A stretch of DNA of 64,000 nucleotides from Thermoanaerobaculia bacterium (GTDB taxonomy: Bacteria; Acidobacteriota; Thermoanaerobaculia; Gp7-AA8): assembly GCA_036261885.1 (NCBI GenBank), contig DATAJY010000005.1, positions 152,720 through 216,719 on the forward strand, written 5' to 3'. Within the stretch, counting starts at the first letter, position 1. Each line of letters opens with the position of its first letter. The translations under genes and the position numbers were made by a program. Under the pieces are notes generated by a model. That model made no database searches, was not told the DNA's origin, and worked only from the letters and a program-made list of their open reading frames with translations. This document shows positions 7,244 through 33,270 of this stretch, piece after piece.

Positions 7244-8614
7244 TCACGGCGCCTGCCACCGCCCGTTCACCAGCGCCCTGGCGTGCAGATCGACTTCGGC
7301 CAGCCACGCGCCGCGCGTACCGACGCGGCTCAGCGGGCCGAATGAGATCGGCGGCGTCAGGGCCGTCGGGACGTTGTAGAAACCCTCCAGCGTCTCGACG
7401 AGTTTCTCGCGCGAGAGATCGCGGCCGGCGCGGCGCAATGCCTCGGCCAGAACTTTCGCGGCCGTCAGCGCCGCCGCGGCGGTCTGCGGATTCGCATCGG
7501 CGCGCGGCGTGAGCGTCTGCAACTCGCGAATGCCGGCGGCGGTGAGATGCGACGGCGCGGAAGGAAGCGCGACGACGAGCCGTCGATCGAGCGCGGCGGG
7601 AGCGGAGAAGAGCGCCTCGCCGGCGAATGACGACGGCACGAGGATGCGCGGCGGATCCGGAAACGTGGCCGCGGCGCGCAGCACTTCGTCGAGACGATTG
7701 GACGCGAGCAGCACGTTCTTCGCGTTGCGCATCGCATCGAGCGGCGTGGTGCTCTGCACTTCGAGCACGTCGTTTTCCGCGAACGCGCGCAAGGCCGCGA
7801 GCTCCTGCGCGGAACTGCCGAGGAGACGAAAGAGATATCGCTGCTCTGCCGCGTCGCCGGAGAAGGCGGCGATCGTCGGAAGCTCGCGCGATTCGAGCCA
7901 CGGCGCGAGCGACTCTTCCGCGCCGAGGAGCGAGCTGGCCGTGAGTGCGAACGGCTGCTCGGTGTCGAGAAACGTCTGCGCGGCGTCGCGGCGCTGAGTC
8001 GTCGCTGCGGGAAGCTCCGTGAAGCAGAGGTCGATGCGGCGGCCGTACAGGCCGCCCGCGCGATTGATGCTTTCGAAGAAACCGGAGACGACGTCGCGCA
8101 CGACGGCGGCGCGCGTGCGGTCGGGGGAGAGCAGCACGCCGATGCGGATCGCGTCGTCGGACAAACCGGGATCGCTGACGATGCCGAGCGTCTGCAGGTA
8201 GGCGACGAGATCGTCGGCATCGCGCGCCGACATCCGATAGCGCGGCATGACGCGATCGAGCTCGTTGCCGGCCGGATCGATGCCCATGGTGATGGCGCGC
8301 TTCAGGGTCGACGGCGTGTACGGCGGGTGCGTGCGCGACCCGATCGCATACGTTTTCGTCAGCTCGCTCCACTGCAGATTCGAAGGCTTCACGCCTCCTT
8401 CCGCGTTTCCGCGTCCGTCGTAGTCGTGGCAGTTCACGCAGCGCAGGACCGTCGCCGGAATGACCATCGTTCCTTCCGCGTCGGTGACCGCGTCGATGGC
8501 CGAGGAGCCTTCGCCGCGCACGTAGATCTTCTTGCCGTTCCGCGCATCGGCAGCGGTGGCCGTCAGCGCCAGCGCCAGCGTCGACGTCAGCAGCACGGCC
8601 GCAAGGCGCTTCAT
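7244..8614 (-). CDS. secreted cytochrome c domain fused to a periplasmic solute-binding (Peripla_BP_6/LivJ-like) domain (456 aa)
   Basis: Internal ATG at 8614 gives signal peptide 'MKRLAAVLLTSTLALALTATAADA' then haem motif 'CVNCH'. The remainder resembles type-I periplasmic binding proteins. The ATG overlaps the upstream SCO1 stop (ATGA). The 717-aa upstream extension in the ORF track is Arg-rich junk. Confidence 0.65.
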   Translation of the reverse strand: MKRLAAVLLTSTLALALTATAADARNGKKIYVRGEGSSAIDAVTDAEGTMVIPATVLRCVNCHDYDGRGNAEGGVKPSNLQWSELTKTYAIGSRTHPPYTPSTLKRAITMGIDPAGNELDRVMPRYRMSARDADDLVAYLQTLGIVSDPGLSDDAIRIGVLLSPDRTRAAVVRDVVSGFFESINRAGGLYGRRIDLCFTELPAATTQRRDAAQTFLDTEQPFALTASSLLGAEESLAPWLESRELPTIAAFSGDAAEQRYLFRLLGSSAQELAALRAFAENDVLEVQSTTPLDAMRNAKNVLLASNRLDEVLRAAATFPDPPRILVPSSFAGEALFSAPAALDRRLVVALPSAPSHLTAAGIRELQTLTPRADANPQTAAAALTAAKVLAEALRRAGRDLSREKLVETLEGFYNVPTALTPPISFGPLSRVGTRGAWLAEVDLHARALVNGRWQAP

Positions 8615-9723
8615 GGCGAGGCCGGAACGGCCGGTGCAGGCGCGGGATCGTCGACCACCGATTTCACGACGTCGATCACGGCATCGATGCCGGCCACGCC
8701 GAGGGCTTTTTTCCAGAGACCGGTGCGATCGTTGCCGATGAGGAAGAGATTCGAGTGGCCGTCGCGATTTTCGGCGAAGAGGCCGACGCGGCGGAGTGCG
8801 GCGTTCACCTGGTCGGGCGTTCCGCTGAGGAAATACCAGCCGTTCTTCGCTTCGAGCTGCGTGGCCAGCGCTTTGAGTTTCGGCGGGGTGTCGTTCTCGG
8901 GATCGACGGTGATGGAGATCAGCACGAGGTCGCGGCCGAGGCGATCGGCGAAGCGGTTCTGCATCGCGCGATAGGCGCTGGCCATGATCGGGCAGGTGGC
9001 TTTGCATTCGGCGAAGAACGCGTTCATCACCACCGTGCGTCCGTGCAGGAGATCGCGATAGAGATCGACCGTCTTGCCGTTTTGATCGACGAGCGGCAAC
9101 GTGCCGAAGTACTGCGCGGCGGGACTCTGCGCGTTGCTCGACGCGGCGGTCGCCGCAACACTCGAGGCGGTGCGTTCCTTTTCGAGCGACTGCAGCGCCT
9201 CCGCGATTTTCGCCGGCGCGGTGAAGCCGTCCATCCGCTGCCAGCGGCCGGTGCGATCGTCGCCGATGACGATGAGCGGCCCGTGATCGGTCTTGTCGGG
9301 AGTGAACGCGCCGACCGATTTGAGCAGCGTGTCGATCTCGTTCGGCTCGCCGGTGACGAGCGTCCAGCCGGGTTGGCCGCCGAGACGCGTGCGCCACGCT
9401 TCGAGCCGCGCCGGCGTGTCGTTCGGTGCGTCGAGCGTGATCGAGAGCAGCGTGATGTCTTTCGCGGAGTCGCCGAGGAGAGACTGCACCTTCGCGAACG
9501 TCGCACCGAGGGTCGGGCAGATCGTCGTGCAGCTGGTGAAGATGAAGTTGATGGCGACGATGCGATCCTTCACCAGCTCGGTGTAGAAACGCTTCGAGGC
9601 TCCGCCCTGATCGACGACGGAGACGTCGGCGATGCGCATCGGCGAATCGACGGAATCGCCGAAGGCGAGCGGTGCGCAGGCGAGCAGCGTGGCAGCGAGC
9701 AGCGATCGTTTGAAGTGGCGCAT
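8611..9723 (-). CDS. tandem SCO1/SenC-family copper chaperone / thiol-disulfide oxidoreductase (two thioredoxin-like domains, 370 aa)
   Basis: Signal peptide 'MRHFKRSLLAATLLACAPLAFG'. Two CxxxC copper-binding motifs ('FTSCTTICP' and 'FAECKATCP'), each with downstream His. Characteristic 'DH..L.LIG.DG' segments appear twice. Confidence 0.75.
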   Translation of the reverse strand: MRHFKRSLLAATLLACAPLAFGDSVDSPMRIADVSVVDQGGASKRFYTELVKDRIVAINFIFTSCTTICPTLGATFAKVQSLLGDSAKDITLLSITLDAPNDTPARLEAWRTRLGGQPGWTLVTGEPNEIDTLLKSVGAFTPDKTDHGPLIVIGDDRTGRWQRMDGFTAPAKIAEALQSLEKERTASSVAATAASSNAQSPAAQYFGTLPLVDQNGKTVDLYRDLLHGRTVVMNAFFAECKATCPIMASAYRAMQNRFADRLGRDLVLISITVDPENDTPPKLKALATQLEAKNGWYFLSGTPDQVNAALRRVGLFAENRDGHSNLFLIGNDRTGLWKKALGVAGIDAVIDVVKSVVDDPAPAPAVPASP

Positions 9724-9801
9724 GATCCCTTACCGGAAAGACGATCGAAGATGGAGAGTCGTGAAATTCACGAGGCGCGGTTTCTGCTTCCCGTGTCCAT
9801 C

Positions 9802-10128: not shown

Positions 10129-10179
10129 GCATCGCCCTTCACGCGGTGCGTCCGCCGTTCGTCTTCCCTGCAGATCGAC

Positions 10180-11310
10180 ATGCGCAGGATGTTCGTCATC
10201 TCGTCGATGACGGGCGGGGGAGCGGCACGCACCACGGCGAACCTCGCCAATCACCAGGCTGCCTGCGGCGAATCGGTGCAGATCCTCACTCTGCATCAGC
10301 CGCAGCGGCCCGACGTCTATCCGCTCCATCCTTCCATCGAACGCCGTGACCTCGGCGAAGAAGCACCGAGCGCCGCGTCGATGTCGGCGGTGCTCGCGCG
10401 ATTCATGCAGCACTACCCTTCGCCGGCGGTGATCGCGCATGCGCCGGTGATCGCGCGGTTGCGCGATGCATTGCTCGAACGCACCTGCGACGTCGCCATC
10501 GGCATCGGTGATGTCACGAACATCCGCCTGCTCGTCGCCGCGCGCCACCTGCCGGTTCGCGTGATCGTCGCCGAGATGGCCGATCCCGGCGGGTATTCGA
10601 TTCTCGATTGGGAACTGCTGCGGAGACGCACCTATCCTCACGCCGAGGCGGTGGTCTGTCTGGCCGCGGAGTTCACGGAGTACTTCCGCCGGCGAGGCAT
10701 CGAGCGCGTGCATGCGATCGCCAGCCCGGTGCTGCCCGCGCCGCCGCGCCACGAAAAACGGCGCGAGCAGCTGATCGTTTCGATCGGACGGCTCGCGTGG
10801 GAGAAGAACCTCCCTCTTCTGCTGCAGGCGTTCTCCGACGTCGCGCCGCGGCATCCGGAGTGGCGGCTCGAACTGTGGGGCAACGGTCCGATGCGACGCG
10901 AGCTCGAAGGACTCGTGGCGTCGTTGCAGTTGCAGGACCGCGTTCGTCTGCCCGGCGTGACGCACGACGTTTATGAGCTGCTCGAACGCGCGGCGTTGTT
11001 CGCGATGACCTCGCGCACCGAGGGGCTGCCGAACGCGTTGTGTGAAGCGATGGCCGCGGGAGTTCCGGCGGTGGTCGCCGATTGTGGCGCGGGCGTGCGC
11101 ACCATCGTTCGCGATGGCATCGACGGCGTGCTGGTGGCACCTCGTCGCGTGGCCGTCGCCGGCGCCCTCGACGCGCTGATGCGGGACGACGAACGACGCG
11201 CGCGTCTGGCGAGCCGCGCGCCGGAAGTAGTCGAACGCTTCGCGATCGATCGCATTGCAGCAGAGTGGGACGAGCTTCTCATCTCCGGAAAGGTGGCCTA
11301 CGCATGTTGA
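10180..11310 (+). CDS. glycosyltransferase family 4 (376 aa)
   Basis: N-terminus 'MFVISSMTGGGAARTTANLAN' is GT4-like. C-terminal 'EGLPNALCEAMAAGVPAVVAD...GIDGVLV' matches the GT-B E-x7-E region. Confidence 0.8.
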   Translation: MRRMFVISSMTGGGAARTTANLANHQAACGESVQILTLHQPQRPDVYPLHPSIERRDLGEEAPSAASMSAVLARFMQHYPSPAVIAHAPVIARLRDALLERTCDVAIGIGDVTNIRLLVAARHLPVRVIVAEMADPGGYSILDWELLRRRTYPHAEAVVCLAAEFTEYFRRRGIERVHAIASPVLPAPPRHEKRREQLIVSIGRLAWEKNLPLLLQAFSDVAPRHPEWRLELWGNGPMRRELEGLVASLQLQDRVRLPGVTHDVYELLERAALFAMTSRTEGLPNALCEAMAAGVPAVVADCGAGVRTIVRDGIDGVLVAPRRVAVAGALDALMRDDERRARLASRAPEVVERFAIDRIAAEWDELLISGKVAYAC

Positions 11311-11972
11311 CCTCAGCAGAGAAAGCGGCTTACACGCAGGACGGTGTGCTTTTCCCGATTCACGTGTTGCGCGAGGGAGAGATCGCGCGCTATCGGGCCA
11401 AGGTCGAGCAGTCGCTCGCCAGCGATCCCGAGAACGCGAAGCTGCCGCACCTCAAATACGACTGGGCGCTCGAGCTGGCCACGCATCCCTTCGTCGTCGC
11501 GGCCGCGGAATCAGTGCTCGGCAGAACCGCCATCTGGGGCGCGATGGTGTTGCGCAAGGAGCCGCACAGCCGCAGCTTCGTCTCGTGGCATCAGGACGGC
11601 GCGTATCGCGAGTTCAAGCCGGGCGACTGCGTGACCGCGTGGATCGCGCTGGCCGACAGCGTGCCGGAGAACGGCTGCATGCAGGTCATCCGCGGCTCGC
11701 ATCACGCGCGCCTGCCGCACTTCGATCAGCCGGAGCCGGACAACATGATCCGCCTCGGCAAGCACATCGAATCGGAGATCGATCCGGCGATGATTACCGA
11801 CGTCGTGTTGCGCGCCGGCGAGATGTCGCTGCATCACAACGACATCGTGCACGGCTCGCAGCCGAACACCTCCGACCGCGCGCGCATCGGCTTCATCGTC
11901 CGCTTCATGAAGTACGGCCTGACGTGGACCGAGTGCCCGCTCGTGATTCCCGGAACGGTCACCGCCGCATGA
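11304..11972 (+). CDS. phytanoyl-CoA dioxygenase (PhyH) family Fe(II)/2-oxoglutarate oxygenase (222 aa)
   Basis: 'WHQDGAY...TAWIALADSVPENGCMQVIRGSH' and 'HHNDIVHGSQPN' His-Asp...His facial-triad pattern. The start overlaps the GT4 stop and the stop overlaps the next ATG (ATGA). Confidence 0.7.
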   Translation: MLTSAEKAAYTQDGVLFPIHVLREGEIARYRAKVEQSLASDPENAKLPHLKYDWALELATHPFVVAAAESVLGRTAIWGAMVLRKEPHSRSFVSWHQDGAYREFKPGDCVTAWIALADSVPENGCMQVIRGSHHARLPHFDQPEPDNMIRLGKHIESEIDPAMITDVVLRAGEMSLHHNDIVHGSQPNTSDRARIGFIVRFMKYGLTWTECPLVIPGTVTAA

Positions 11973-12967
11973 AGGTGTTGCTGACCGGCAATCACGTCTA
12001 TCCCGCCGCCGCGCAGAAGAGCGCCGGGCGCAGGGTGACGGAGCTGCCGTCCGGCTCCGCGCAGCGGCTGCAGGATCTGACCGCGCGCGGGCTGGTCGAG
12101 GCCGGACACGAAGTGGTCTACTACTTGACCAAACCGCCGGCGGGCCGTCCGCCGCGCGGCGTGACCGTCGTCGATCGCTGGATCACGAACGTCGACGTCG
12201 TGCACACGCACGTGCAGCGCGAAGAGTTCGAAGACGAAGCGCGCGCGCTGCAACTGCCGTTCATCTCCGTGCTGCATCTCCACCCGAGCTCGCGTCCGGC
12301 GGCGATGCCGGAGCCGCGCGAGGAGTGGGTGTATGTCTCCCGTTTTCTCGCCGAAGCGCTCGGCGGCACGCGTTTCGTGCACAACGGCGTCGATCCGGCC
12401 GACTACGCGTACTCCGAGGCGAAGGACGACTACGTGCTCTTCCTCTCGTCGATGGACTGGTGCGTGGAGAAAGGGCTCGACGTCGCCATCGCGCTCTCGA
12501 AGCGGATCGGCTTCCGCCTCGTCGTCGCCGGCAGCGCGCGAACCGAAGAGCGGCTCGCTGCGGCGATGGCGTTGTGTGCCGAGGGGGGAGCCGAGTACGT
12601 CGGCGACGTGCAGGGAAACGAAAAGGCGGAACTGCTCGCGGGTGCACGGGCGTTACTCCACCCTTCGCGCTATCAGGAAGCGTGTCCGCTCTCGATCATC
12701 GAGGCCCTGATGTCGGGCACGCCGGTGATCACGACGCCGTGGGGCGCATCGGCCGAGTTGATGACGCGTGACGCCGGCTTTCTCTGCCGCGACGAGAGCG
12801 ATTATGTCGATGCATTCGCGCGTCTCGGCGAGATCGCGCCGCGCGCGTGCCGCGACCACGCGCTGGCCCGATTTCACTACCGGCGCATGGTGGCCGGATA
12901 CCTGCGCGAGTACGAAACCGCCATCGGCGCGTTCACAACTGCGGGCGCTCATCCGTCAACTGAGTAA
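11969..12967 (+). CDS. glycosyltransferase, GT-B/GT4-like (332 aa)
   Basis: 'EACPLSIIEALMSGTPVITTPWGASAELM' is a GT4 C-terminal sugar-donor motif. The ORF track fuses this frame with junk upstream; the ATG at 11969 is coupled to the PhyH stop. Confidence 0.7.
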   Translation: MKVLLTGNHVYPAAAQKSAGRRVTELPSGSAQRLQDLTARGLVEAGHEVVYYLTKPPAGRPPRGVTVVDRWITNVDVVHTHVQREEFEDEARALQLPFISVLHLHPSSRPAAMPEPREEWVYVSRFLAEALGGTRFVHNGVDPADYAYSEAKDDYVLFLSSMDWCVEKGLDVAIALSKRIGFRLVVAGSARTEERLAAAMALCAEGGAEYVGDVQGNEKAELLAGARALLHPSRYQEACPLSIIEALMSGTPVITTPWGASAELMTRDAGFLCRDESDYVDAFARLGEIAPRACRDHALARFHYRRMVAGYLREYETAIGAFTTAGAHPSTE

Positions 12968-13056
12968 CAGCCTTTTTTCCTGACCAATCGTCGCGGCGCG
13001 CCTTCGTTCGTGCGTACGCGAGGACTTCGTCCCGTTCGATTTTCGAGGAGGAAACG

Positions 13057-16000
13057 ATGCTCCGTCGCCCGGCCTTGTTCCTGTTGATCCTCGGCGCGCT
13101 CGTGCCGCTGGTGGCGCAGGCAGACAATCCCTGCACGCCCCAGAACACCACGCGAGCCGACGTGGTCGCGCTCGATCAGGCGTTCTACAACAATCGCCTC
13201 GGTGCCTTCCAATCGGGAGGCACGATCTACGCGCTGCGCCGCGACGTGGTCAGCAACGCCGGTGGAGCGAGCGCGCTCACGGCCGGCAAGGTGATGCTGC
13301 GTCCGGACAAGCGTCCGCGCCCGATCGTGCTGCGCGTCAACGAAGGGAGCTGCCTCGAGATCGCGTTCCAGAACCTCCTCGCTCCCGTGCCGCAGGTCTC
13401 GGTCTTTCCCGCCGCCTCACCGTGGGAAAACCAGAGCACGATGTCGAACGCCTACACCTCGACCGGCGGCGCGTCGACCGATCTGCAGAAATGGGGAACG
13501 CAGACCACCCAGGGACCGACGCGCTACGCCGGCGTGCACGTGATGGGCTTGAACCTCGTCAGTGCGAAAGACGGCAGCGGCGCGCCGATCGAGGCGATCG
13601 CCGCCGACGGCTCCTGGACCGGTGCGAACGACATCACCGCGAACGCGCGCGGCCCGCGGGCCAGCGGTCTCGTCGCACCAGGCGAGAAGATCACGTATAC
13701 GCTGTTCGCCCGCGAGAACTCCGAAGGCTCGTATCTGCTCTACAGCACCGGCGCGACGAATGGTGCGTCGCAGGATTTCGGCGGGCAGTTGATGCAGGGC
13801 CTCTTCGGCTCCGTCACCGTGCAGCCGGGAAGATCGGAGTGGTATCGCAGCCAGGTCACGCGCGATGAACTGCTCAAGGCGACGTACACCGCGGCGGGAC
13901 AGACGCTCACGCCGAGCAGCAAAGCGCCGGTGAAGATCAACGGCAAGAGCGCGAAAGTGTGGAACTGGAAGGTGTCGGCCACCGACACGCGGGAAGCGGT
14001 CCTGCTGAATGCGGACGGCGATCCGGTTTCCGGCAGCAGCAGCGCCTACCTCCACACCACGAAAGGACAGCCATACATCAACTACGGCGCCACCGATTCG
14101 ACGCGGCAATGCGGCGGCGAGCCGCTGCCGGTGCTGAAGATGACGAACGGAAAGGGCGAGATCTGCCACAGCGATCTCACCGCGATCATCACCGGCCCGA
14201 ACGCGGGTCTGGTGATCGATCCGCCGTACGCGGGCGTGCCGTCGACGCCGAATCCACGCGAGCCGTGGCGCGAGTTCGCCATCCACTATCACGACGATTT
14301 CCTCGTCACGCAGGCGTTCCCGCAACAGCAGCCGGGCAACAGTCTGGCCGGCACGCTGAACGCCGGCCGCGATTACTTCGCGATCAACTACGGCATCGGC
14401 GGCATCGCCGCGGAGGTGCTGGCCAATCGGCTCGGCGTCGGCCCGATGTATCAGTGCGCGACGTGCAAGTTCGAAGAGTTCTTTCTCAGCTCCTGGACCG
14501 TCGGCGACCCGGCCATGGTGGTCGACGTCCCGGCCAACAACGGCACCGGCACCGGACCGAAAGCGACCAAGGCGCTCTTTCCGGATGATCCGTCGAACGT
14601 CTACCACAGCTACGTCGGCGATCACGTGATCTTCCAGATCCTGCACGCCGGCACGAACATCACCCACGTGCATCACCTGCACGCGCAGCAGTGGCTGCAT
14701 TCGCCGCGCAATGCGAACAGCGCGTATCGCGACAGCCAGATGATCAGCCCGGGCGCGTCGTACACGCTCAACCACGTGTACAACGGCAGCGGCAACGTCA
14801 ACAAAACGGTCGGCGACTCGATCTTCCACTGCCACTTCTATCCGCACTTCGCGCAGGGCATGTGGTCGATGTGGCGCGTGCACGATGCGTTCGAAGCCGG
14901 CACGATCCTCAATGCCGACGGCACGGTGCGCAAGGGATGGAACCGCGCACTTCCGGACGGCGAGATCGCCAGCGGAACGCCGACGCCGGGCCTCGTGCCG
15001 CTGCCGACGATTCCGATGGCGCTGCCGCCGGCGCGCACGCAGATCGTCGACGTCACGATTCCGGGGCAGACCAAGCCGGTCGGTTACACGGTGCAGGTCC
15101 ATCCCGACGACAAGACCGCGACTCCGGGCTATCCGTTCTTCATTCCCGGCGTGGCCGGACAGCGCGCGCCGCATCCGCCGCTCGATCTCGCCTGGGACGA
15201 AGACGGCAACGGCAAGCCGCGCAAGGATTCGAAGGGCAACACGATTTATCTCGACGGCGGATTGCCGCGGCACATCTCGCTCTTCGATACCGACATCACC
15301 GAGAAGCACACGCGCTGGGACTTCACCAAAGACAACGGCGCGATCACGGCCGTGCAGCTGCCGGAGGATGGCACCGCGAGCGAGCGGCAGGCCATGACCG
15401 TGCACGAGCAGCGCAACCATCCGTCGTTCACGCCGGAAGGGAAGCCCGCCTCGTTCGTGCTCAACGGCATGAAGCGCAAGCACGGCGCGCCGTACGCGAA
15501 CCCGAACGTCAATCTCGACGGCACGCCGCACTGCAATGACGACGTGCCGCCGGCGATGGTGCTCGATCCGAAGGACGGCGAGCAGCCATGCCTGATCCGC
15601 TACAAGGCGGCGGCCATTCAGATCGACGCGGTCTTCAACAAGAAAGGATGGCATTACCCGCAGTCGCGCATCCTCTCGCTGTGGGGCGACGTGAAGGACA
15701 CGATGGCCAACAAGCGGATTCCGCAGCCATTCTTCTTCCGCGCGAACAGCGATCAGATCATCGAGTACTGGCACGCCAATCTCGTTCCGAACTACTACGA
15801 GCTCGACGACTTCCAGGTGCGTACGCCGACCGACGTCATCGGCCAGCACATTCACCTCGTGAAGTTCGACGTGACGTCGTCCGACGGCGCGGGCAACGGC
15901 TACAACTACGAAGACGGCACGTTCAGCCCCGATGAAGTGCGGGAGACCATCGAGGCCATCAATCAGTGTCCGGACCATCAGCCGTGCGCACAGTGCCCGG

Positions 16001-19000
16001 CCGGTCTGTTCCCGATGCTCTCGATCACCGGCAGCGGCGCGAAGCCGGGCGGCACGCGCACCTGCCTGAAACCGAAGGCGATTCCGTATTTCGGCGACGG
16101 TCCGGATGGACGCTGGGTCGGGGCGCAGGCGACGATTCAGCGCTGGGCCGCCGATCCGGTGTTCGGCGAGAAGCAGGCCGACAGTCTCATCGAATATCCG
16201 AAAGGCGAGCGCCGCATCGATCGCACGCTGCGCACGGTCTTCACGCACGATCACTTCGGTCCGTCGACGCATCAGCAGGTCGGGCTCTACGCCGGCCTGG
16301 TGGTCGAGCCGAAGCACACCTACTGGCTCGACGGCGAAACCGGCGAGCATTACGGCTCGAACCAGAATCGCCCCATCGGTGCAAACGGACTGGCGCCGTT
16401 CGACGGCGGTCCGACCGGATGGCACGCGACGATCCTGCATCCCAACAAGCCGAGCGATGACTATCGCGAGTTCGTGCTCGAGTTCCAGGACCGGCAGCTC
16501 GCCTACACCTCGAGCAGCATCGGCAAGGCCGTGCCGTACGACGGAGGCACCTCGGCGTACACCGGCTGGTCCGATCCGCAGTTCGCGATCTCGCCGCCGG
16601 CCACCGGCACCGGGCCGCGTCCGCCGTGGCCGGTGCTGGTCACGAACTCCTTCGCCACCGGCTCGTACTCGGTCAACTATCGCAACGAGCCGCTGACGTT
16701 CCGCGCGTTCGGCGGCACGCCGAACCAGACGCCGAACGCCGCCGGCTCGGATCTCTCGAATGCCTTTGCCTCGATTCCGCGGCTCGATCCGCAACTGAAC
16801 ACGCAACCGGCCGCCGGCTCACCGATCACCACGACCGGCGCGAATGCGTTCACGTTCCCGCCGCCGTTCCGCGGCGCCGGTGCGAACGATCCGTACACGC
16901 CGCTGCTGCGCGCGTATGACGGAGACAACGTACAGCTGCGCACGCTCGTCGGCGCGCACATGTCGCCGCACTTCTTCAACGTGCACGGCGTGAACTGGCT
17001 CTTCGAGCCGGCCGAGGAGGACTCGGGGTGGAGATCGGCGCAGGGGATGGGCATCTCCGAGCACTACGAAATGATCTTCACCATGCCGCGCACCGGCGGC
17101 CCGACGTCGGACTATCTCTATGAAGCGAGCTCCGACACCACCGGCCGGAAGAACGGCAACTGGGGTCTGCTGCGCGCGTACAGCCAGGATCAGACCGACC
17201 TGCAGCGCCTGCCGAACAATCCGGCCACCGCACCGGCCACGGCCGGACCGCCGGCGGGATGTCCGGGGCCCGACGTCGCTCCGGCGCGCGAGTACCGCGT
17301 GCGGGCGATGACCATCCAGCAGGCCACCGGCGCGAACTGGCTCACGTACAACGCGCGTGGTGCGGCCGGCAAGAACGGCGGCGAACAGCTCGTCGATCCG
17401 AACGCGATCATCTATGTCGATGAAGCGGATCTCGTGGACGGGAAGCTGAAGAACCCGAACCGCGTCGAGCCGCTGATTCTCCGCGCGAAAGCGGGCGAGT
17501 GTGTTTCGGTGACGCTCACGAACTCACTGCCGGGCGATACCGTCGGTGCAACGGTGACGACGACGCCGCCGTGGCCGACGCAGTTCACGCTCACCGCGAC
17601 GCAGAACGCCATCGACGACATGCTGGTCTTCTTCGTCGGCGCCGGTTCGACCACGCCGCGCCAGAGCTCGTACAGCACCGAGTTCCAGCTGCTCTTCAAC
17701 ACCAACACGTTCGGCTATCAGCTTCCGCCCTCGGGTGTCGGCAGCAGCACCACGAACAACGGCAACAACACCTACACCATCGTCTCCGGCAACACGTACA
17801 TCGTTTCGCGCACGAGCAACACCACGCTCAACGTCACGGTGGCGCAGCCGGTCGCGATCAGCACGTCGAAAAACGTCGGCCTGCATGCATCGCTGCTCGC
17901 GTATGACGTGCGCAGCAACGACGGCATGAACGTTGGCGCGAATCCGACGCAGACGCTCACGCCCGGCCAGTCGCGCACCTACAAGTGGTACGCGGGGCAG
18001 TACTTCCTCGAAAACGACGTCTGGACGCCGCGGCCGGTTGAGTACGGCTCGGTCAATCTCAACCCCTCCGATCCGCTGATGCAGCATCCGAAGGGACTCA
18101 TCGGCGCGCTGATCATCGAGCCGCGGACCACGACGAAGTGGACCGTCGACGAGAACTCGAACGCCTCCGCGCGCGTCGAGTACACCGAAGACGGCGCGGC
18201 GAAGTCGTTCCGCGAATTCGTGGCCATCATCTCCGACGACATCATCGGCATGCAGAAGACCGGCGGCCAGCCGGTGCAGGCCGCGCCGGCGGTGACCGTC
18301 GACGATGGCAGTGGCGGTGTGGACAATCCGGTCGACAGCGGCAGCAGCGGCACGGCCGATGCCGGCAAGACCATCACCATCTCCGGCGTGGTCATCAACG
18401 GCACGATCGCCTGGGCGCTCGACGGCACGCAGAAGCCGAACAACACCACGTACGACGTTTCGCCCGGCGACACCGTCGTCTTCAACGTGACGAACGGGAA
18501 GCACGGCGTGGCGTTCCTGCCGGGACAGCCGGCGTTCGACGCCTTCTTCGATGTCGTCTCCGGCGGCAATCTCCTGAAGGCCAGCCCGAACGGCATCACC
18601 GGTTCATGGGGCACCGACGCGTTCAACGGACCGGCGTCTCTGGTCACGCTGCGCGTGAAATCGACCGCCACCGGCAACCTGCCGTTCGAATGCACGCAGC
18701 ACAAGACGAACATGGCCGGCACGCTGCGCGTCGTTTCGAGCAGCGGCAGCACGCTCGCCGGCGACATCGTCAACAGCCAGGTGGTGTGGGCGTTCAACGG
18801 CGTTCCGAAGGCGAACAACTCGACGTACAACGTGAAGGCGGGCGACATCATCACGGTGACGTCGCAGAACGGTCTGCACGGCATCGCCTTCCTGCAGGGG
18901 CAGACCGCATTCGAAGCATTCTTCGACGTGCTGTCGGGCGGGAGCCTGCTGATCCCGAATCCGAACGGCATCACCGGCTCGTGGGGCACGCTGCCGCAGA

Positions 19001-20826
19001 ACGGTCCGGTCACGCTGCTCACGCTGCAGGTGAAGGCGACGGCCACCGGCAAGCTGCCGTTCGAATGCTCGCAGCACAAGCAGAACATGGCCGGCACGTT
19101 CCAGATCAGCGGGGCGCCCACGCCGACGCACACCATCACCGGCGATCTCGTCAACGGCACGCCGACCTGGCTGCTCGACGGGAAGGCGATGCCGAACAAC
19201 AGCTCCTATCCGATGAAGCCGGGCGACATCATCCTGTTCGACGTGAAGAGCGGCACGCACGGCGTGACGTTCACGCAGGGACAGACGGCCTTCAACAACT
19301 TCTTCAACGTCCTCGACGGCGCGAGCAAGTTGATCGCGAATCCGAACGGCATCACCGGCGGCTGGGGCACGCCCGCGGTCGCGGGACCGGCCACGCTGAT
19401 CACCATTCAGGTGAAAGCGAGCGCCAAGGGGACGCTCATCTTCTGGTGCACGCAGCACAAGCAGAACATGGCCGGCACGTTCTCGGCCGGTCCGCAGACG
19501 TGGAACGTCACCGGCGACAACGCGCCCGGTCCGGTGTGGAAGCTCAATGATGCAGTGCAGTCCAACAACGCCTCGTATCCGATCAGCTCCGGCGACACGG
19601 TGGTCTTCTCCGTCGCCACCGGCCGTCACGGCGTGGCGTTCATCACCGGCCGTGCGGCGTTCGACAACGTCTTCGACGTCGTCTCGAGCACCGCGCCGCT
19701 GAAAGACAACCCGAACGGCATCGCCGGCTCTTACGGCACCGATGCCTTCAACGGACCGCAGGCGCTGATCACGGTGAAAGTGAAGCCGAATGTCGCGCCG
19801 ACGAACCTGCCGTTCTGGTGCACGCAGCACAAGGCGAACATGGCCGGTACGTTCAAGGTGAACGGCGGCGTGCCGACGCTCACCGCGGTGCCGACGCAGT
19901 TCACGCGCGCGTTCAACTACAAGACCGAGCCGCTGCAGTATCGCTACGTCGATCAGAACGCGTTCCTCAACCCCGCCTCGTATCCGCTCGGCATCATGCG
20001 CGCGGTCTCGAACCAGCTCGTGCTGGCCGATCCGCAGACTCCGGTGTTCGCGGCCGCGGCAGGGGAGCCGGTGCGCATTCGCATGCTCCATCCGGCCGGC
20101 CTCGACGAACAGGTGCTGACGCTGCACGGTCACGCGTGGCAGGAAGAGCCGTACGAGAACGGTACGCAGTCTTCCGTCATCGGGCACAACAAGTTCTCGC
20201 AATACCTCGGCTCGCGCGATGCGTTCGGTCCGAACGTCTCGTGGGACCTCGTGATCGACGAGGCGGGCGGGCGCGCGCAGACGAAGGGCGATTACATCTT
20301 CCGCACCTTCATCGGCACCGACTTCCTCTTCGGCCTCTGGGGCATCCTGCGGGTCGGCCATGCGAATCGCGACGTCGTCACCGTGAACTACTTCCCGCCG
20401 CCGAGCGCCGGCTCGAATTTCCCGGCCGGCCTGCGCGGCACGACCACCGTCAACACGTCGACCGGCCGCATGGCCGATCGCATCGAGATCTACGCCGGCT
20501 CTTCGGCCAGCGGCACGCCGTTCGACACGGTGCGCATCGACAAGTCGACCGGCTTCTGGTCGTCGACGAAGACGATGCCGAATCCGCCGCTCTTCGTGCA
20601 GTCGGTGTCGTGCTCCGATGCGAACTGCACGTCGAAGACGCCGTGGGGCTCGCGCGTGATGGAGACGTACATCCCGACCACGACCATTCCGGCCGGCAGC
20701 ATTGCGCAGCCGATGATCCAGCTGCCGCCGTCACCGATCGATCTGTTCAAGCCGGCGCGTCCTGACACGATCGTGCAGCCGCAGCCGACGACCACTCCGA
20801 CGCACGAGCATCCGCCCGAACACTGA
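13057..20826 (+). CDS. giant secreted multicopper-oxidase-like protein carrying four tandem cupredoxin (type-1 copper) domains (2589 aa)
   Basis: GAGGAGG RBS and signal peptide 'MLRRPALFLLILGALVPLVAQA'. MCO copper motifs: 'IHYHDD' (HxH), 'HVHHLH' (HxxHxH) and 'HCHFYPHFAQGM' (HCHxxxHxxxxM), with a second set 'GQHIHLVKFD', 'THDHF' and 'LTLHGHAW'. Residues ~1770-2270 hold four ~125-aa repeats, each with 'G.HGV.F', 'NPNGI.G.WGT' and 'F(E/W)C(T/S)QHK.NMAGT', the His/Cys/His/Met ligand set of a blue-copper site. Confidence 0.8.
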   Translation: MLRRPALFLLILGALVPLVAQADNPCTPQNTTRADVVALDQAFYNNRLGAFQSGGTIYALRRDVVSNAGGASALTAGKVMLRPDKRPRPIVLRVNEGSCLEIAFQNLLAPVPQVSVFPAASPWENQSTMSNAYTSTGGASTDLQKWGTQTTQGPTRYAGVHVMGLNLVSAKDGSGAPIEAIAADGSWTGANDITANARGPRASGLVAPGEKITYTLFARENSEGSYLLYSTGATNGASQDFGGQLMQGLFGSVTVQPGRSEWYRSQVTRDELLKATYTAAGQTLTPSSKAPVKINGKSAKVWNWKVSATDTREAVLLNADGDPVSGSSSAYLHTTKGQPYINYGATDSTRQCGGEPLPVLKMTNGKGEICHSDLTAIITGPNAGLVIDPPYAGVPSTPNPREPWREFAIHYHDDFLVTQAFPQQQPGNSLAGTLNAGRDYFAINYGIGGIAAEVLANRLGVGPMYQCATCKFEEFFLSSWTVGDPAMVVDVPANNGTGTGPKATKALFPDDPSNVYHSYVGDHVIFQILHAGTNITHVHHLHAQQWLHSPRNANSAYRDSQMISPGASYTLNHVYNGSGNVNKTVGDSIFHCHFYPHFAQGMWSMWRVHDAFEAGTILNADGTVRKGWNRALPDGEIASGTPTPGLVPLPTIPMALPPARTQIVDVTIPGQTKPVGYTVQVHPDDKTATPGYPFFIPGVAGQRAPHPPLDLAWDEDGNGKPRKDSKGNTIYLDGGLPRHISLFDTDITEKHTRWDFTKDNGAITAVQLPEDGTASERQAMTVHEQRNHPSFTPEGKPASFVLNGMKRKHGAPYANPNVNLDGTPHCNDDVPPAMVLDPKDGEQPCLIRYKAAAIQIDAVFNKKGWHYPQSRILSLWGDVKDTMANKRIPQPFFFRANSDQIIEYWHANLVPNYYELDDFQVRTPTDVIGQHIHLVKFDVTSSDGAGNGYNYEDGTFSPDEVRETIEAINQCPDHQPCAQCPAGLFPMLSITGSGAKPGGTRTCLKPKAIPYFGDGPDGRWVGAQATIQRWAADPVFGEKQADSLIEYPKGERRIDRTLRTVFTHDHFGPSTHQQVGLYAGLVVEPKHTYWLDGETGEHYGSNQNRPIGANGLAPFDGGPTGWHATILHPNKPSDDYREFVLEFQDRQLAYTSSSIGKAVPYDGGTSAYTGWSDPQFAISPPATGTGPRPPWPVLVTNSFATGSYSVNYRNEPLTFRAFGGTPNQTPNAAGSDLSNAFASIPRLDPQLNTQPAAGSPITTTGANAFTFPPPFRGAGANDPYTPLLRAYDGDNVQLRTLVGAHMSPHFFNVHGVNWLFEPAEEDSGWRSAQGMGISEHYEMIFTMPRTGGPTSDYLYEASSDTTGRKNGNWGLLRAYSQDQTDLQRLPNNPATAPATAGPPAGCPGPDVAPAREYRVRAMTIQQATGANWLTYNARGAAGKNGGEQLVDPNAIIYVDEADLVDGKLKNPNRVEPLILRAKAGECVSVTLTNSLPGDTVGATVTTTPPWPTQFTLTATQNAIDDMLVFFVGAGSTTPRQSSYSTEFQLLFNTNTFGYQLPPSGVGSSTTNNGNNTYTIVSGNTYIVSRTSNTTLNVTVAQPVAISTSKNVGLHASLLAYDVRSNDGMNVGANPTQTLTPGQSRTYKWYAGQYFLENDVWTPRPVEYGSVNLNPSDPLMQHPKGLIGALIIEPRTTTKWTVDENSNASARVEYTEDGAAKSFREFVAIISDDIIGMQKTGGQPVQAAPAVTVDDGSGGVDNPVDSGSSGTADAGKTITISGVVINGTIAWALDGTQKPNNTTYDVSPGDTVVFNVTNGKHGVAFLPGQPAFDAFFDVVSGGNLLKASPNGITGSWGTDAFNGPASLVTLRVKSTATGNLPFECTQHKTNMAGTLRVVSSSGSTLAGDIVNSQVVWAFNGVPKANNSTYNVKAGDIITVTSQNGLHGIAFLQGQTAFEAFFDVLSGGSLLIPNPNGITGSWGTLPQNGPVTLLTLQVKATATGKLPFECSQHKQNMAGTFQISGAPTPTHTITGDLVNGTPTWLLDGKAMPNNSSYPMKPGDIILFDVKSGTHGVTFTQGQTAFNNFFNVLDGASKLIANPNGITGGWGTPAVAGPATLITIQVKASAKGTLIFWCTQHKQNMAGTFSAGPQTWNVTGDNAPGPVWKLNDAVQSNNASYPISSGDTVVFSVATGRHGVAFITGRAAFDNVFDVVSSTAPLKDNPNGIAGSYGTDAFNGPQALITVKVKPNVAPTNLPFWCTQHKANMAGTFKVNGGVPTLTAVPTQFTRAFNYKTEPLQYRYVDQNAFLNPASYPLGIMRAVSNQLVLADPQTPVFAAAAGEPVRIRMLHPAGLDEQVLTLHGHAWQEEPYENGTQSSVIGHNKFSQYLGSRDAFGPNVSWDLVIDEAGGRAQTKGDYIFRTFIGTDFLFGLWGILRVGHANRDVVTVNYFPPPSAGSNFPAGLRGTTTVNTSTGRMADRIEIYAGSSASGTPFDTVRIDKSTGFWSSTKTMPNPPLFVQSVSCSDANCTSKTPWGSRVMETYIPTTTIPAGSIAQPMIQLPPSPIDLFKPARPDTIVQPQPTTTPTHEHPPEH
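18370..19870 (+). repeat. four in-frame tandem repeats (~375 bp each) encoding cupredoxin-like domains inside the giant MCO gene
   Basis: Peptide repeats starting 'TITISGVVINGT', 'SGSTLAGDIVNS', 'APTPTHTITGDL' and 'PQTWNVTGDNAP', each ending in '...LPFxCTQHKxNMAGTF'. The DNA-level similarity is visible, e.g. recurring 'aatccgaacggcatcaccgg' and 'cagcacaag..gaacatggccggcacg'. Confidence 0.7.
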
Positions 20827-20832
20827 ACCCGC

Positions 20833-22671
20833 ATGAGGCACAAAGCACTCGCTGCCACGTTTCTGCTCCTCGCCGCCGCGACCTTCGCGCGCGGCGAGGA
20901 GTCCGTCGAGACCGCGCCGGTCGTGCGCAAAGCCGTGCACGACGGCGTCGCGGTGAAGATGACCATCGATCACGCCGCGGCCGCCGAGGCGCAACCGTTG
21001 CGCGGGGGGGATGACGTGGTGGTGCGTTTCGAGATCACCGACGCCGCCACCGGCGCGCCGTTGCGCGGCGCGAAACCGGCGGCGTGGATGGACGGCGGTC
21101 ACGATCGCCCGTCCGGCTGCCGCGACCGCATCAACATCTACGCGGGCGGCGGTTTTCTCGGGCGCGCCGATGTGAATCTCAATACGTTTCACGTGCTGGC
21201 GATGAATGACGACGCGACGTTGACGGTCGTCGATCCGCTGTTCGGATTCGGCGGCACGAAACTGCTCGCACTGGTGGAGCTGCCGAGTCCCGCCAACGAC
21301 TGGGTGCTCACCGATGACAGCAACCAGTTGTTCGTGTCGATGGCGAAAGCGAAGCAGGTCGCGCTCGTCGATACCGCGGCCTGGCGGGTGGCGAAGAGCG
21401 TTTCGTTCCGCACTTCTCCGGGCCGCATCGTGCTGCAACGCGATGAAGGGTATCTCTGGGTCGCAACCGAAGACGCGCTCGTGGCGTTGCGCACGAAAGA
21501 CCTCGGCATCGCCGCATCGCTGCCGCTGCCGAGCGGCGCGCACGACGTCGTCGTCTCGCACGACAATCGTTTCGTCTTCGCCACCAGCGCCGAGGGCGAT
21601 CGCGTGACGGTGGTCGACGTCGCGAAGCTCGCGGTCGTACGGGAGGTGAAGGTTGCGCGGCCGGTCTCGATCGCCTGGTCCTCGCTCGCGAACACCGCGT
21701 ACGTCGCGAGCGAGAAAGGGGCGATCGTCGCGGTGGGGACGCGCGGTGTGCTCGCGACCATCGACGTCGGCGCGGGCGTCTCGATGGTTCGCGTCACTCC
21801 CGACGCGCGGCTGGCGCTGGCCATCAATCCGCTCGAGAGCTCGATCGATGTGATCGACGTCTCCACGAATCGTTTGATGCAGAGCGGCGAGCTGCCTGGC
21901 GTTCCGGATCAGATCGCGTTCTCGCGCACGATCGCGTACGTCCTGCTGCGCGATTCCGAACAGGTACAGATGATCGTGCTCTCCGAGCTCGGTCACAAAG
22001 ACGCGCCGATCGCGATCGCCGACGTCGGCGGCGGACGGCGCGCGTTCGAGACCGATGCCACCTCTTTCGCACCGTCGGTCGTGCAGGCCGTCGGCGGAGA
22101 CTCGGTGCTCTTCGCGAACGGTCCCGACCGGGTCATCTACTACTACCAGGAAGGGATGGCCGCGCCGATGGGAAACTTCAACAACTACGGCCGGCGGCCG
22201 CGTGCGGTGATGGTCGTCGATCGCAGCCTGCGCGAGCGGCGTCCCGGCGTGTATGAAACGTCGGCGCGTCTGGCCGATGCCGGCCGCTATGACGTCGCGT
22301 TCCTCCTGGACGTGCCGCGCGCCGTCGATTGTTTCAATGTCGCCGTGGCCGAAGCACCGCGTACGAAATCGACGCGGCCGGTCGTGCATGCGGCGCTCGT
22401 CGATGATGGTGCCCGCAGGAGCGGCGCGAAATCGTCTCTGCGATTCCGTCTGACCAACGAAGCAGGCGCGCCGATCGAAACGCTCGGCGATTCGCTCGTG
22501 CTCATCTTCGCGCCCGGCATCTGGCAGGGGAGAGAACAACCGCGCCCCTTGGGCGACGGTACGTTCGCCGTCGACTTCACGCCCCCCGCACCCGGCAACT
22601 ACGCGATGTATCTCAACGCCGCCTCGCAGGGACTCTCCTACACGTTCGTCGGCTCGGTCTCCGTGCAGTGA
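20833..22671 (+). CDS. secreted YVTN-type beta-propeller repeat protein (612 aa)
   Basis: Starts 6 bp after the MCO stop. Signal peptide 'MRHKALAATFLLLAAATFARG'. Reiterated ~40-aa units such as 'QLFVSMAKAKQVALVD', 'YLWVATEDALVALR', 'FVFATSAEGDRVTVVD', 'AYVASEKGAIVAVG' and 'LALAINPLESSIDVIDV', typical of YVTN/NHL-like propellers. Confidence 0.65.
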   Translation: MRHKALAATFLLLAAATFARGEESVETAPVVRKAVHDGVAVKMTIDHAAAAEAQPLRGGDDVVVRFEITDAATGAPLRGAKPAAWMDGGHDRPSGCRDRINIYAGGGFLGRADVNLNTFHVLAMNDDATLTVVDPLFGFGGTKLLALVELPSPANDWVLTDDSNQLFVSMAKAKQVALVDTAAWRVAKSVSFRTSPGRIVLQRDEGYLWVATEDALVALRTKDLGIAASLPLPSGAHDVVVSHDNRFVFATSAEGDRVTVVDVAKLAVVREVKVARPVSIAWSSLANTAYVASEKGAIVAVGTRGVLATIDVGAGVSMVRVTPDARLALAINPLESSIDVIDVSTNRLMQSGELPGVPDQIAFSRTIAYVLLRDSEQVQMIVLSELGHKDAPIAIADVGGGRRAFETDATSFAPSVVQAVGGDSVLFANGPDRVIYYYQEGMAAPMGNFNNYGRRPRAVMVVDRSLRERRPGVYETSARLADAGRYDVAFLLDVPRAVDCFNVAVAEAPRTKSTRPVVHAALVDDGARRSGAKSSLRFRLTNEAGAPIETLGDSLVLIFAPGIWQGREQPRPLGDGTFAVDFTPPAPGNYAMYLNAASQGLSYTFVGSVSVQ

Positions 22672-22690
22672 CGCTCGTTCGCGTGGCGTG

Positions 22691-23437
22691 ATGAACGACA
22701 CGATTCAATCGCTCTGGATCGGCGGCGCGCTCTCGCCGATGGAGCAGCTCGCGCTCGCGTCGTTTCTTCATCACGGCCATCGCGTCGATCTCTACGTGTA
22801 CGACGAAGTGCGGCACGTCCCGGCCGGGACGACGCTGCGCGATGCGAACGAGATCCTTCCGCGCGAGCGGATCTTTCGCTATCGCGAGCACGACACCGTC
22901 TCCGGCTTTTCGAACTTCTTCCGCTATCGCCTGCTGCTCGAGCGCGGCGGGTGGTGGGTCGATACGGATGTCGTCTGTCTGCGCGCGTTCGATTTCGCGG
23001 ATGACCATGTGTTCGCGAGCGAGCCGACGCGCGACGGCAGCACGCCGGCATCGTGTGTGATCCGCGCGCCGGCCGGCGGCGCCGCCATGCAACTCGCCTG
23101 GGAACGCTGCGATGCGCGCGATGCCTCATCGTTGCGCTGGGGCGAAACCGGACCGCGGCTGGTGAAGGAGATCGTCGCGGAATGCGGGCTCGAATCGTTC
23201 GTGCAGCCGCCGGAGGTTTTCTGTCCGCTGCCGTTCTTCGCCTGGCGCACGATCGTCGAAGGTCCGCCGCCGTCATTCGACGCGCCGACGCGGGCGGTGC
23301 ATCTCTGGAACGACATGTGGCGGCGCGGCGGAGCGAGCAAGGACGACGTTCCGGAAGGAACGTTGTACGCGCAGCTCATCGAACGAGTTCTGGGCGGGAG
23401 AGCAGCGCGTAGCGCTCCACATCGTCCACGTGATTGA
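22691..23437 (+). CDS. glycosyltransferase with DXD motif (Gly_transf_sug-like, 248 aa)
   Basis: 'LLLERGGWWVDTDVVCLR' resembles the conserved DXD region of the alpha-1,4/1,6 sugar transferase family. The 3' end overlaps the convergent 712-aa gene by ~60 bp. Confidence 0.55.
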   Translation: MNDTIQSLWIGGALSPMEQLALASFLHHGHRVDLYVYDEVRHVPAGTTLRDANEILPRERIFRYREHDTVSGFSNFFRYRLLLERGGWWVDTDVVCLRAFDFADDHVFASEPTRDGSTPASCVIRAPAGGAAMQLAWERCDARDASSLRWGETGPRLVKEIVAECGLESFVQPPEVFCPLPFFAWRTIVEGPPPSFDAPTRAVHLWNDMWRRGGASKDDVPEGTLYAQLIERVLGGRAARSAPHRPRD

Positions 23438-25514: not shown

Positions 25515-25517
25515 GGC

Positions 25518-25775: not shown

Positions 25776-25813
25776 GTTTTCTTCCCCTTTCTTCGGGACG
25801 ATGGTTGGTCGGT

Positions 25814-27630: not shown

Positions 27631-27631
27631 G

Positions 27632-29678: not shown

Positions 29679-29698
29679 GCGGCACCATGGTCGTTTCC

Positions 29699-31344: not shown

Positions 31345-31353
31345 CGCCTCACC

Positions 31354-31758: not shown

Positions 31759-31780
31759 CTCGTCTGCTCTCCTTCACGCA

Positions 31781-33227: not shown

Positions 33228-33270
33228 GTTGTATCTCGTAGACGACCGGCGCGTGCCGCGTGTGAAACGG

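Follow-up and report, generated by a model that had tools for sequence, protein, structure and literature searches.

A predicted MnxG-type multicopper oxidase with four inserted cupredoxin modules and its conserved gene partners in a Thermoanaerobaculia bacterium

MnxG-type multicopper oxidases (MCOs) are the main candidates for bacterial manganese-oxide formation. Mn(II) oxidation by MnxG of Bacillus and of Pseudomonas putida is the sole experimentally supported function in the family, and the Bacillus protein is the biochemically best characterised Mn(II) oxidase. For bacterial six-domain MCOs, a type-1 (T1) copper in domain 2 and a trinuclear cluster between domains 2 and 3 have already been described, and proteins of 2493 and 2681 amino acids (aa) were listed as early as 2013 (PMC3600357). 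The operon figure for mnxG of P. putida GB-1 depicts a beta-propeller 'lactonase family' protein, an SCO family protein, an 'ABC transporter', here taken to be the binding-protein gene, and a SurA-domain protein (PMC8218464). Here we analysed a stretch of 64,000 nucleotides (the window) from a Thermoanaerobaculia (Acidobacteriota) bacterium (assembly GCA_036261885.1, contig DATAJY010000005.1, positions 152,720 to 216,719 of the forward strand). It encodes a 2589-aa protein, 100% identical to the NCBI 'hypothetical protein' VHW00_06200 of a Thermoanaerobaculia metagenome-assembled genome (MAG), which by its sequence is almost certainly an MnxG-type MCO with one active site. Inserted in it are four modules that, on the model of one of them, are very probably copper-binding T1 cupredoxins. 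An earlier note on this DNA had reported the open reading frame (ORF), its copper motifs, the four repeats of about 125 aa and a propeller gene beginning 6 bp past the oxidase stop, and all of these were recovered by ORF calling and motif positions.

The only strong NCBIfam match of the oxidase was NF041487, 'manganese-oxidizing multicopper oxidase MnxG' of the Pseudomonas type, with 1041.5 bits. Its only solved relative in the PDB was the Bacillus MnxG (9bxa_A, E = 7.2e-90), with residues 8-1206 of which it was piecewise collinear across six cupredoxin domains (Table 1); the MnxG-like nature proposed in the earlier note was borne out by both matches. The motif HVHHLH was located at aa 537-542 and HCHFYPHFAQGM at aa 591-602, with further pairs at aa 410 (HYH), 931 (HIH), 1064 (HDH) and 2357 (HGH). 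Ligand conservation was determined in a MAFFT alignment with the 120 best homologues (44-100% identity over the locally aligned region), in which H537, H540, H542, H591, C592, H593, H597, M602, H931, H933, H1064 and H1066 were invariant in all 120. These twelve residues make up one T1 site and one trinuclear cluster of eight His (four HxH pairs), at motifs equivalent to those of MnxG, and the core has only one HCH motif, with only one of its Cys lying in a T1 context. In Pfam, the whole oxidase matched only PF07731 (Cu-oxidase_2) with 16.3 bits, below the cutoff of 20.4, and no cupredoxin family. The Pfam annotation suggested in the earlier note therefore gave a sub-threshold Cu-oxidase match and no Copper-bind match. 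Some homologues do carry PF07731 or PF07732; the family is too divergent for the Pfam Cu-oxidase models.

The earlier note had read the motifs as two MCO copper sets on a duplicated six-domain scaffold, which would give two complete copper sets and two catalytic centres. In favour of this, the additional pairs HYH410 and HGH2357 exist and are mostly conserved (H410 in 98, H412 in 118, H2357 in 93 and H2359 in 112 of the 120 homologues), and homologues that lack one pair tend to lack the other (odds ratio about 4, p = 0.009, with no phylogenetic correction). Two centres are nevertheless extremely improbable given one HCH, one T1-context Cys and a core that corresponds one-to-one to the six domains of the 1227-aa Bacillus MnxG, i.e. 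an ordinary six-domain core with one set of twelve ligands. The HGH pair falls on 'HLHGH' of MnxG domain 6, a degenerate HxxHxH position without an HCH or Cys partner, and the additional length relative to the Bacillus protein is due to linker insertions and modules, not to a second scaffold. All the HxH pairs that had been noted 'toward the C-terminus' are present, but HYH lies N-terminal of the HxxHxH motif, and HIH and HDH form the domain-3 half of the sole trinuclear cluster. Bacillus MnxG has no His at the positions of HYH410. By their alignment, the HGH2357 pair of domain 6 is vestigial, and the HYH410 pair is family-specific. Outside the twelve ligands, H161, H517, H530, H539, H609, H706, H866, H1072, H1301, H1305 and H2345 were kept in at least 115 of the 120 homologues. 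These additional conserved His, like the two pairs HYH410 and HGH2357, may be remnants of copper sites present in an ancestor, or they may bind further Cu or Mn.

Four C-x2-H-x3-M sites were found at aa 1879, 2004, 2131 and 2255, each within a tandem repeat of about 125 aa, and the array is placed exactly between the domains equivalent to MnxG domains 5 and 6. The modules share 45-58% pairwise identity and are joined by short Ser/Gly/Thr/Pro linkers. Module 1 was modelled with AlphaFold2 using an alignment of 30 modules from diverse homologues (mean column identity 34%), giving a predicted local distance difference test score (pLDDT) of 95.9, a predicted template modelling score (pTM) of 0.88 and a helix at model residues 63-69. 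When the model was searched against the PDB with Foldseek, all 26 matches at E <= 1e-3 were cupredoxins or cupredoxin domains of MCOs or nitrite reductases. Auracyanin, plastocyanin (2gim, TM-score 0.68 to the target), amicyanin and pseudoazurin were among them, as was the tethered N-terminal cupredoxin of the Hyphomicrobium nitrite reductase (6tfo and 2dv6, E = 2-4e-4, identity 14-18%). The module profile aligned both ligand regions with a fern plastocyanin, but with E = 0.13 only. In the alignment of the 30 modules, H55, C118, H121 and M125 were invariant, and the H/C/H/M tetrad was intact in 128 of 154 module copies from homologues. The earlier note had taken the inserts for T1 cupredoxin domains and had suggested domain modelling; the conserved tetrad, the cupredoxin fold predicted for module 1 and the Foldseek matches all agree with it.

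The modules are invisible to Pfam: with the 30 modules searched separately at E <= 10, no cupredoxin family (e.g. PF00127, Copper-bind) was obtained for any of them, and because these models miss the modules the protein is labelled 'hypothetical protein'. Some of the oxidase homologues are named 'plastocyanin' in IMG. A word-indexed protein search with the module profile returned 3 short proteins only and was superseded by an exhaustive search of 1.84 billion cluster representatives, in which only 162 proteins matched at E <= 1e-3. Since the strong placeable matches among these carry flanking MnxG-core sequence, being MnxG-like proteins or fragments thereof, the modules appear to form a narrow branch of the cupredoxins that is all but confined to this oxidase family.

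Relatives of the oxidase numbered 2748 at E <= 1e-5 among the scored candidates, many of them 1900-2700 aa long, and were found in at least 588 species-representative genomes of Acidobacteriota (many from soil), Bacteroidota, Alpha-, Beta- and Gammaproteobacteria, Myxococcota, Planctomycetota and others. The Pseudomonas and Bacillus models thus greatly understate the size and spread of the family, and proteins of 2500-2700 aa are not rare in it, contrary to the earlier note, which had called MCOs of this size very rare. Among the 120 closest homologues, each protein carries 0-5 modules, inserted at four sites, namely three inter-domain linkers (D1/D2, D3/D4 and D5/D6) and the C-terminus. The D5/D6 linker is the site used in the window; D3/D4 insertions are of the Bradyrhizobium type with 2-3 copies, D1/D2 was seen in one case, and the C-terminal module is a single copy with an incomplete or substituted ligand tetrad in most of those listed. 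In a scan of genome contigs, only 11 of 80 loci carried modules. In the MAG of the closest relative, one paralogue bears modules and three lack them; that only one paralogue per genome carries the array suggests that this copy has a specialised function. Single Thermoanaerobaculia genomes had as many as four MnxG-like paralogues (loci L007, L050, L058 and L078 in MAG SMAG_U12094, one alone with an array), and two (L006 and L076) lie on the same contig of SMAG_U11898. A second MnxG paralogue was sought in the window and not found; its remaining giant ORFs encode STAND kinases and a CHAT-TPR protein. At locus L072, a propeller gene lies downstream of an MnxG-like gene on a contig (DYGR01000032.1) binned as the archaeon 'Candidatus Methanoperedens nitroreducens', as a result of either horizontal transfer or a binning error.

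The neighbours of the oxidase include the propeller gene, an SCO1 copper chaperone gene and a gene for a cytochrome c fused to a binding-protein domain (cyt c-PBP), the latter two being upstream and divergent. The propeller protein scored above the cutoffs for PF21783 (39 versus 27.1 bits) and TIGR02276 (28.7 versus 27.85 bits). Its AlphaFold2 model (pLDDT 87) has a run of short beta-strands at residues ~117-440 that was read as seven blades, and its best Foldseek match was an archaeal S-layer YVTN+PKD fragment (1l0q, E = 2.8e-19), followed among others by the periplasmic zinc chaperone AztD and N2O reductase. Its family comprises more than 1700 proteins conserved over their full length; since it has no invariant His, the protein is treated as an accessory or assembly subunit, not as a metal site. 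Both SCO1 domains are encoded as a fusion by a single ORF, and the signal peptide of the fusion has a possible lipobox (LLAC). An SCO1 of about 350 aa is also present in the closest relative, and most other loci encode a single-domain SCO1 of about 180-210 aa.

Partner genes were surveyed by tblastn over 85 MnxG-like loci. Of these, 69 had a propeller homologue, nearly always as the next gene downstream in the same orientation, 51 had SCO1 and 47 had cyt c-PBP; the commonest gene order was oxidase, propeller, SCO1, cyt c-PBP. All 47 cyt c-PBP orthologues, across phyla, have one CxxCH. The link to a YVTN propeller, SCO1 and cytochrome c-PBP that the earlier note had drawn is real and conserved across phyla, and the oxidase, propeller, SCO1 and haem-c/binding-protein fusion constitute a conserved functional unit. 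This partner set is known in outline from the operon figure for P. putida (PMC8218464), and no discussion of it was found in the literature searched. As cited in PMC13631088, Mn oxidation by P. putida requires cytochrome c maturation genes, which we infer would fit a functional cytochrome partner; the CxxCH of the binding-protein partner may explain the loss of Mn oxidation in such mutants.

These data also bear on whether the protein is a non-catalytic, adhesin-like surface protein that merely retains cupredoxin folds. It is a very large secreted protein with a low-complexity stretch at aa ~1495-1604 and a Pro/Thr-rich tail, and the S-layer fragment as best fold match of the propeller partner points the same way. 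Unconserved His and Cys positions, which the earlier note had named as the mark of such an adhesin, are excluded by the invariance of all twelve catalytic ligands in 120 of 120 homologues. With the module tetrad conserved and a copper chaperone and a cytochrome c kept in the operon as well, an adhesin is very hard to credit.

We propose the following mechanism. After Sec export, the oxidase would be loaded with copper by SCO1. The domain-2 T1 site would take single electrons from a donor, most likely Mn(II) by homology to MnxG, and pass them to the trinuclear cluster, which would reduce O2 to water. The T1 coppers of the four modules would be non-catalytic; tethered to the enzyme, they would relay or store electrons between the catalytic T1 site and an outside redox partner, most plausibly the cytochrome c of the operon, and the propeller protein would serve as an accessory or assembly subunit. 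Taken as a whole, with an oxidase of the MnxG kind, Mn(II) as donor, the modules as relay or reservoir and the partners as described, we regard this explanation as moderately probable. A relay or reservoir role of the modules is suggested because they resemble free electron carriers and the tethered cupredoxin of the Hyphomicrobium denitrificans nitrite reductase (HdNIR), are optional and variable in number, and lie in linkers; the role is plausible but falls slightly short of an even chance. Mn(II) is favoured as the substrate because its oxidation by the Bacillus and P. putida proteins is the only function with experimental support. Its being the physiological substrate is held evenly balanced, because this clade and four relatives from outside Pseudomonas fall below the equivalog threshold.

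Several observations weigh against this explanation. The oxidase misses the NF041487 equivalog cutoff (1041.5 versus 3100 bits), as do relatives from Undibacterium, Duganella, Bradyrhizobium and Pyxidicoccus (1025-1187 bits), so that transferring the name 'Mn(II) oxidase' is an extrapolation. The protein is a member of the broad MnxG-type six-domain MCO family with the usual operon partners, and not an NF041487 equivalog. Many family members have no modules, including all four other paralogues from the MAGs of the two closest relatives, and the modules are therefore dispensable for basic catalysis. Furthermore, the number of modules does not track the presence of a cyt c-PBP gene. Finally, clade-specific neighbours, namely glycosyltransferases, PhyH, luciferase-like monooxygenases, an acyl-CoA dehydrogenase and a dehydroquinase (DHQase)/shikimate-dehydrogenase-like gene, hint at an organic product, which could be the real substrate.

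On that account, the oxidase would be laccase-like and act on an organic (phenolic or quinonoid) product of the neighbouring clade-conserved biosynthetic genes, for example by cross-linking or polymerising a shikimate-derived or glycosylated compound. Multicopper oxidases are often promiscuous, which favours an organic substrate. The oxidase is flanked by genes for GT4, GT1, DXD-type and GT2 glycosyltransferases, PhyH, luciferase-like monooxygenases, an acyl-CoA dehydrogenase and the DHQase/shikimate-dehydrogenase-like protein, and the same block occurs at loci L001, L003, L004 and L005. Most loci of the family, however, lack this block yet keep propeller, SCO1 and cyt c-PBP; the four-gene metal/electron module is therefore the conserved functional unit. 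Mn(II) oxidation as the only experimentally supported function of the family also counts against an organic substrate, which we consider unlikely.

The T1 coppers of the modules could instead be additional entry points that oxidise substrate, making the protein a ferroxidase- or cuproxidase-type or multi-site metal oxidase in the manner of ceruloplasmin. Several T1 sites are present in ceruloplasmin-type six-domain MCOs (PMC3600357), and the T1 ligands of the modules are strictly conserved. The modules resemble free electron-carrier cupredoxins, however, and not the substrate domains of MCOs, and their short linkers, 0-5 copies and four insertion sites are better explained by docking or relay units than by substrate sites fixed in place. 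Any electron taken up at a distant T1 would still have to reach the one trinuclear cluster by some route, and a substrate-oxidising role thus seems quite unlikely.

An extension of the proposed relay, which we hold to be improbable, is that the T1 modules and the mono-haem cytochrome c-PBP form a protein 'copper wire' linking the oxidase to the respiratory chain. If true, such a wire would be the copper counterpart of multi-haem cytochrome conduits, by which electrons from Mn(II) or another extracellular donor could be harvested for energy or, in reverse, respiratory electrons could be dumped on O2 with the MCO as terminal oxidase. The wire would also account for the need for cytochrome c maturation genes in Mn oxidation by Pseudomonas, which has been known for decades.

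Tandem arrays of Pfam-invisible T1 cupredoxins in inter-domain linkers, their four insertion sites with 0-5 module copies, and the universal CxxCH in the binding-protein partner (47/47) appear to be undescribed in the literature searched, the coverage of which was incomplete. A sizeable subset of the family has repeatedly acquired plastocyanin-like arrays in inter-domain linkers. If the arrays carry electrons between enzyme and partner, they would provide an experimental handle on whether Mn(II) oxidation is wired to cellular electron transport and would be a natural example of multi-centre copper electron relays. Bradyrhizobium diazoefficiens is a cultured carrier of a three-module homologue, which strain SZCCT0423 and the strain of assembly GCA_018130895.1 (L034 and L005) have in the same gene cluster.

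The oxidase ORF has a high third-position GC content (0.88) and a GGAGG Shine-Dalgarno sequence 6-7 nt 5' of its ATG. Its N-terminus, MLRRPALFLLILGALVPLVAQA with D as the following residue, was judged by eye to be a Sec-type signal peptide. Tat export, considered for the RR at aa 3-4, was rejected because the RR pair is not conserved among homologues and a periplasmic SCO1 chaperone is co-encoded. A stretch rich in Ser, Thr and Asn and of low complexity lies between domains 4 and 5 (aa ~1495-1604, window ~17540-17868) and is poorly conserved among homologues. For aa 2437-2589, no PDB or Pfam match and no recognised sorting signal were found. The idea that the flanking glycosyltransferases N-glycosylate the modules was dropped, as N-x-S/T occurs at a conserved Asn in only 67 of 154 modules and the oxidase has 26 sequons against about 23 expected.

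The GT4, PhyH and GT1 genes are co-oriented upstream of the oxidase with overlapping stops and starts, in an order kept in the three loci L001, L003 and L004 and with the same genes in Bradyrhizobium (L005), where the gene set of the window recurs. The position of the DXD-type glycosyltransferase is kept in L001, L003 and L005. A scan of positions 9600-23600 gave no sigma-70 promoter and, on the + strand, no terminator-like site. An accessory block on the - strand (23376-33481) comprises genes for a 712-aa protein, an ORF of about 99 aa, a GT2, one or two luciferase-like monooxygenases, a protein of about 320-420 aa, an acyl-CoA dehydrogenase and a DHQase/shikimate-dehydrogenase-like fusion. 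It is present in the Thermoanaerobaculia relatives (L001, L003 and L004) and in Bradyrhizobium diazoefficiens (L005) and absent from most other MnxG-like loci. The conserved 712-aa neighbour (23376-25514, -) has no Pfam match; it was considered as a membrane oligosaccharyltransferase and rejected, being hydrophilic with no evident long hydrophobic stretch by eye.

Farther away, a tyrosinase-domain protein (43685-45373, +; PF00264, E = 1.4e-32, weak PPO1_DWL) represents a second copper oxidase about 23 kb past the MCO. A PatG-like subtilase (57340-59235, +; Peptidase_S8, PatG_D and PatG_C, E = 1.9e-37) suggests a macrocyclase locus for a cyanobactin-like ribosomally synthesised and post-translationally modified peptide (RiPP), and the adjoining ORF at 56058-57344 has no Pfam match. 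On the - strand are genes for three large proteins of the signalling or STAND type, namely a 1063-aa protein with a C-terminal Ser/Thr kinase domain (35912-39103), a 1290-aa kinase and AAA_16 protein (47480-51352) and a 1201-aa TPR and CHAT protein (52137-55742); a CHAT-TPR gene is also located near the oxidase in L003.

Table 1. Position, strand and basis of the features in the window (MnxG residue numbers refer to 9bxa_A)
Feature	Position	Strand	Basis
MnxG-type six-domain multicopper oxidase gene (predicted), with four inserted cupredoxin modules	13057..20826	+	ORF and translation, 2589 aa
Predicted Sec-type signal peptide, aa 1-22, AQA/D	13057..13122	+	Translation, by eye
N-terminal region: domain 1 and family-specific insert, HYH 410-412	13123..14574	+	Weak collinear match to MnxG 8-257
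Domain 2: predicted catalytic T1 Cu (H537/C592/H597/M602) and half of the trinuclear cluster (H540/H542/H591/H593)	14575..14958	+	aa 507-634 align with MnxG 251-376
Domain 3: other half of the trinuclear cluster, H931/H933/H1064/H1066 (HIH, HDH)	15541..16356	+	aa 829-957 and 1055-1099 align with MnxG 427-610
Domain 4: no complete copper site, conserved H1301/H1305 remnants	16882..17535	+	aa 1276-1493 align with MnxG 690-900
Domain 5	17866..18279	+	aa 1604-1656 (weaker to ~1741) align with MnxG 924-976, on to about 1059
Predicted cupredoxin module 1, aa 1762-1892, H1816/C1879/H1882/M1886	18340..18732	+	Repeat, AlphaFold2, Foldseek
Predicted cupredoxin module 2, aa 1895-2018, C2004	18739..19110	+	Repeat and motif
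Predicted cupredoxin module 3, aa 2019-2144, C2131	19111..19488	+	Repeat and motif
Predicted cupredoxin module 4, aa 2145-2269, C2255	19489..19863	+	Repeat and motif
Domain 6, vestigial HGH 2357-2359	19903..20364	+	aa 2283-2436 align with MnxG 1072-1206
Beta-rich C-terminal region and Pro/Thr-rich tail, aa 2437-2589	20365..20826	+	Translation
Secreted 612-aa partner: N-terminal Ig-like domain, 7-bladed YVTN/YncE beta-propeller, two C-terminal beta-sandwiches	20833..22671	+	PF21783, TIGR02276, AlphaFold2
Two-domain SCO1/SenC copper chaperone, CxxxC at aa 65 and 240	8611..9723	-	PF02630, 114 bits, two stretches
Mono-haem cytochrome c fused to Peripla_BP_6 domain (cyt c-PBP)	7244..8614	-	Pfam, one CxxCH; ATG overlaps SCO1 stop
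GT4 glycosyltransferase	10180..11310	+	Pfam
PhyH-family dioxygenase	11304..11972	+	Pfam
GT1 glycosyltransferase	11969..12967	+	Pfam
DXD-type glycosyltransferase, co-oriented, downstream of propeller	22688..23437	+	PF04488/PF04572

Compared with known systems, the oxidase belongs to the same family as MnxG of P. putida GB-1 (PputGB1_2447; NF041487), a large protein with a six-domain core of roughly 1900 aa, and as far as the operon figure for the latter depicts it, a propeller, an SCO1 and a binding-protein gene accompany the oxidase in both (PMC8218464). Unlike P. putida MnxG, the window oxidase reaches only a third of the equivalog cutoff (1041 versus 3100 bits), and its SCO1 and cyt c-PBP genes are divergent and upstream instead of downstream. 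It differs in its cupredoxin modules from the module-free members of about 1900 aa present among the scanned homologues, the Pseudomonas proteins (1941-1970 aa) themselves lying outside that scan. Glycosyltransferase, PhyH and monooxygenase neighbours and an Acidobacteriota instead of a gammaproteobacterial host further set the window apart from P. putida. With MnxG of Bacillus sp. PL-12 (9bxa), it shares six collinear cupredoxin domains, and in both proteins the T1 and trinuclear ligands occupy identical places within domains 2 and 3. The Bacillus protein, in contrast, has 1227 aa, no linker insertions, no extra T1 modules and no HYH410 pair, and it works with the small subunits MnxE and MnxF, whereas the family of the window oxidase has a propeller protein of 610 aa.

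The three-domain nitrite reductase of Hyphomicrobium denitrificans (2dv6 and 6tfo), in which a plastocyanin-like T1 domain is fused to a cupredoxin-built enzyme with its own T1 site, is the best analogue for how the modules may act, although HdNIR is a reductase with one N-terminal tethered domain and the window protein an oxidase with four in tandem in an internal linker. Ceruloplasmin and hephaestin likewise combine a six-domain scaffold with more than one T1 copper per polypeptide (PMC3600357). Their T1 sites, however, lie in scaffold domains 2, 4 and 6 (three in ceruloplasmin) with the cluster between domains 1 and 6, whereas the scaffold in the window has one T1 site in domain 2, the cluster between domains 2 and 3, and its extra T1 sites on separate appended domains. 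Finally, the modules are like plastocyanin, amicyanin, pseudoazurin and auracyanin in their predicted fold and in the His/Cys/His/Met order of their ligands, and unlike these small soluble cupredoxins in being undetected by Pfam, in an extra helix-containing insert and in the ligand loop C-x2-H-x3-M.

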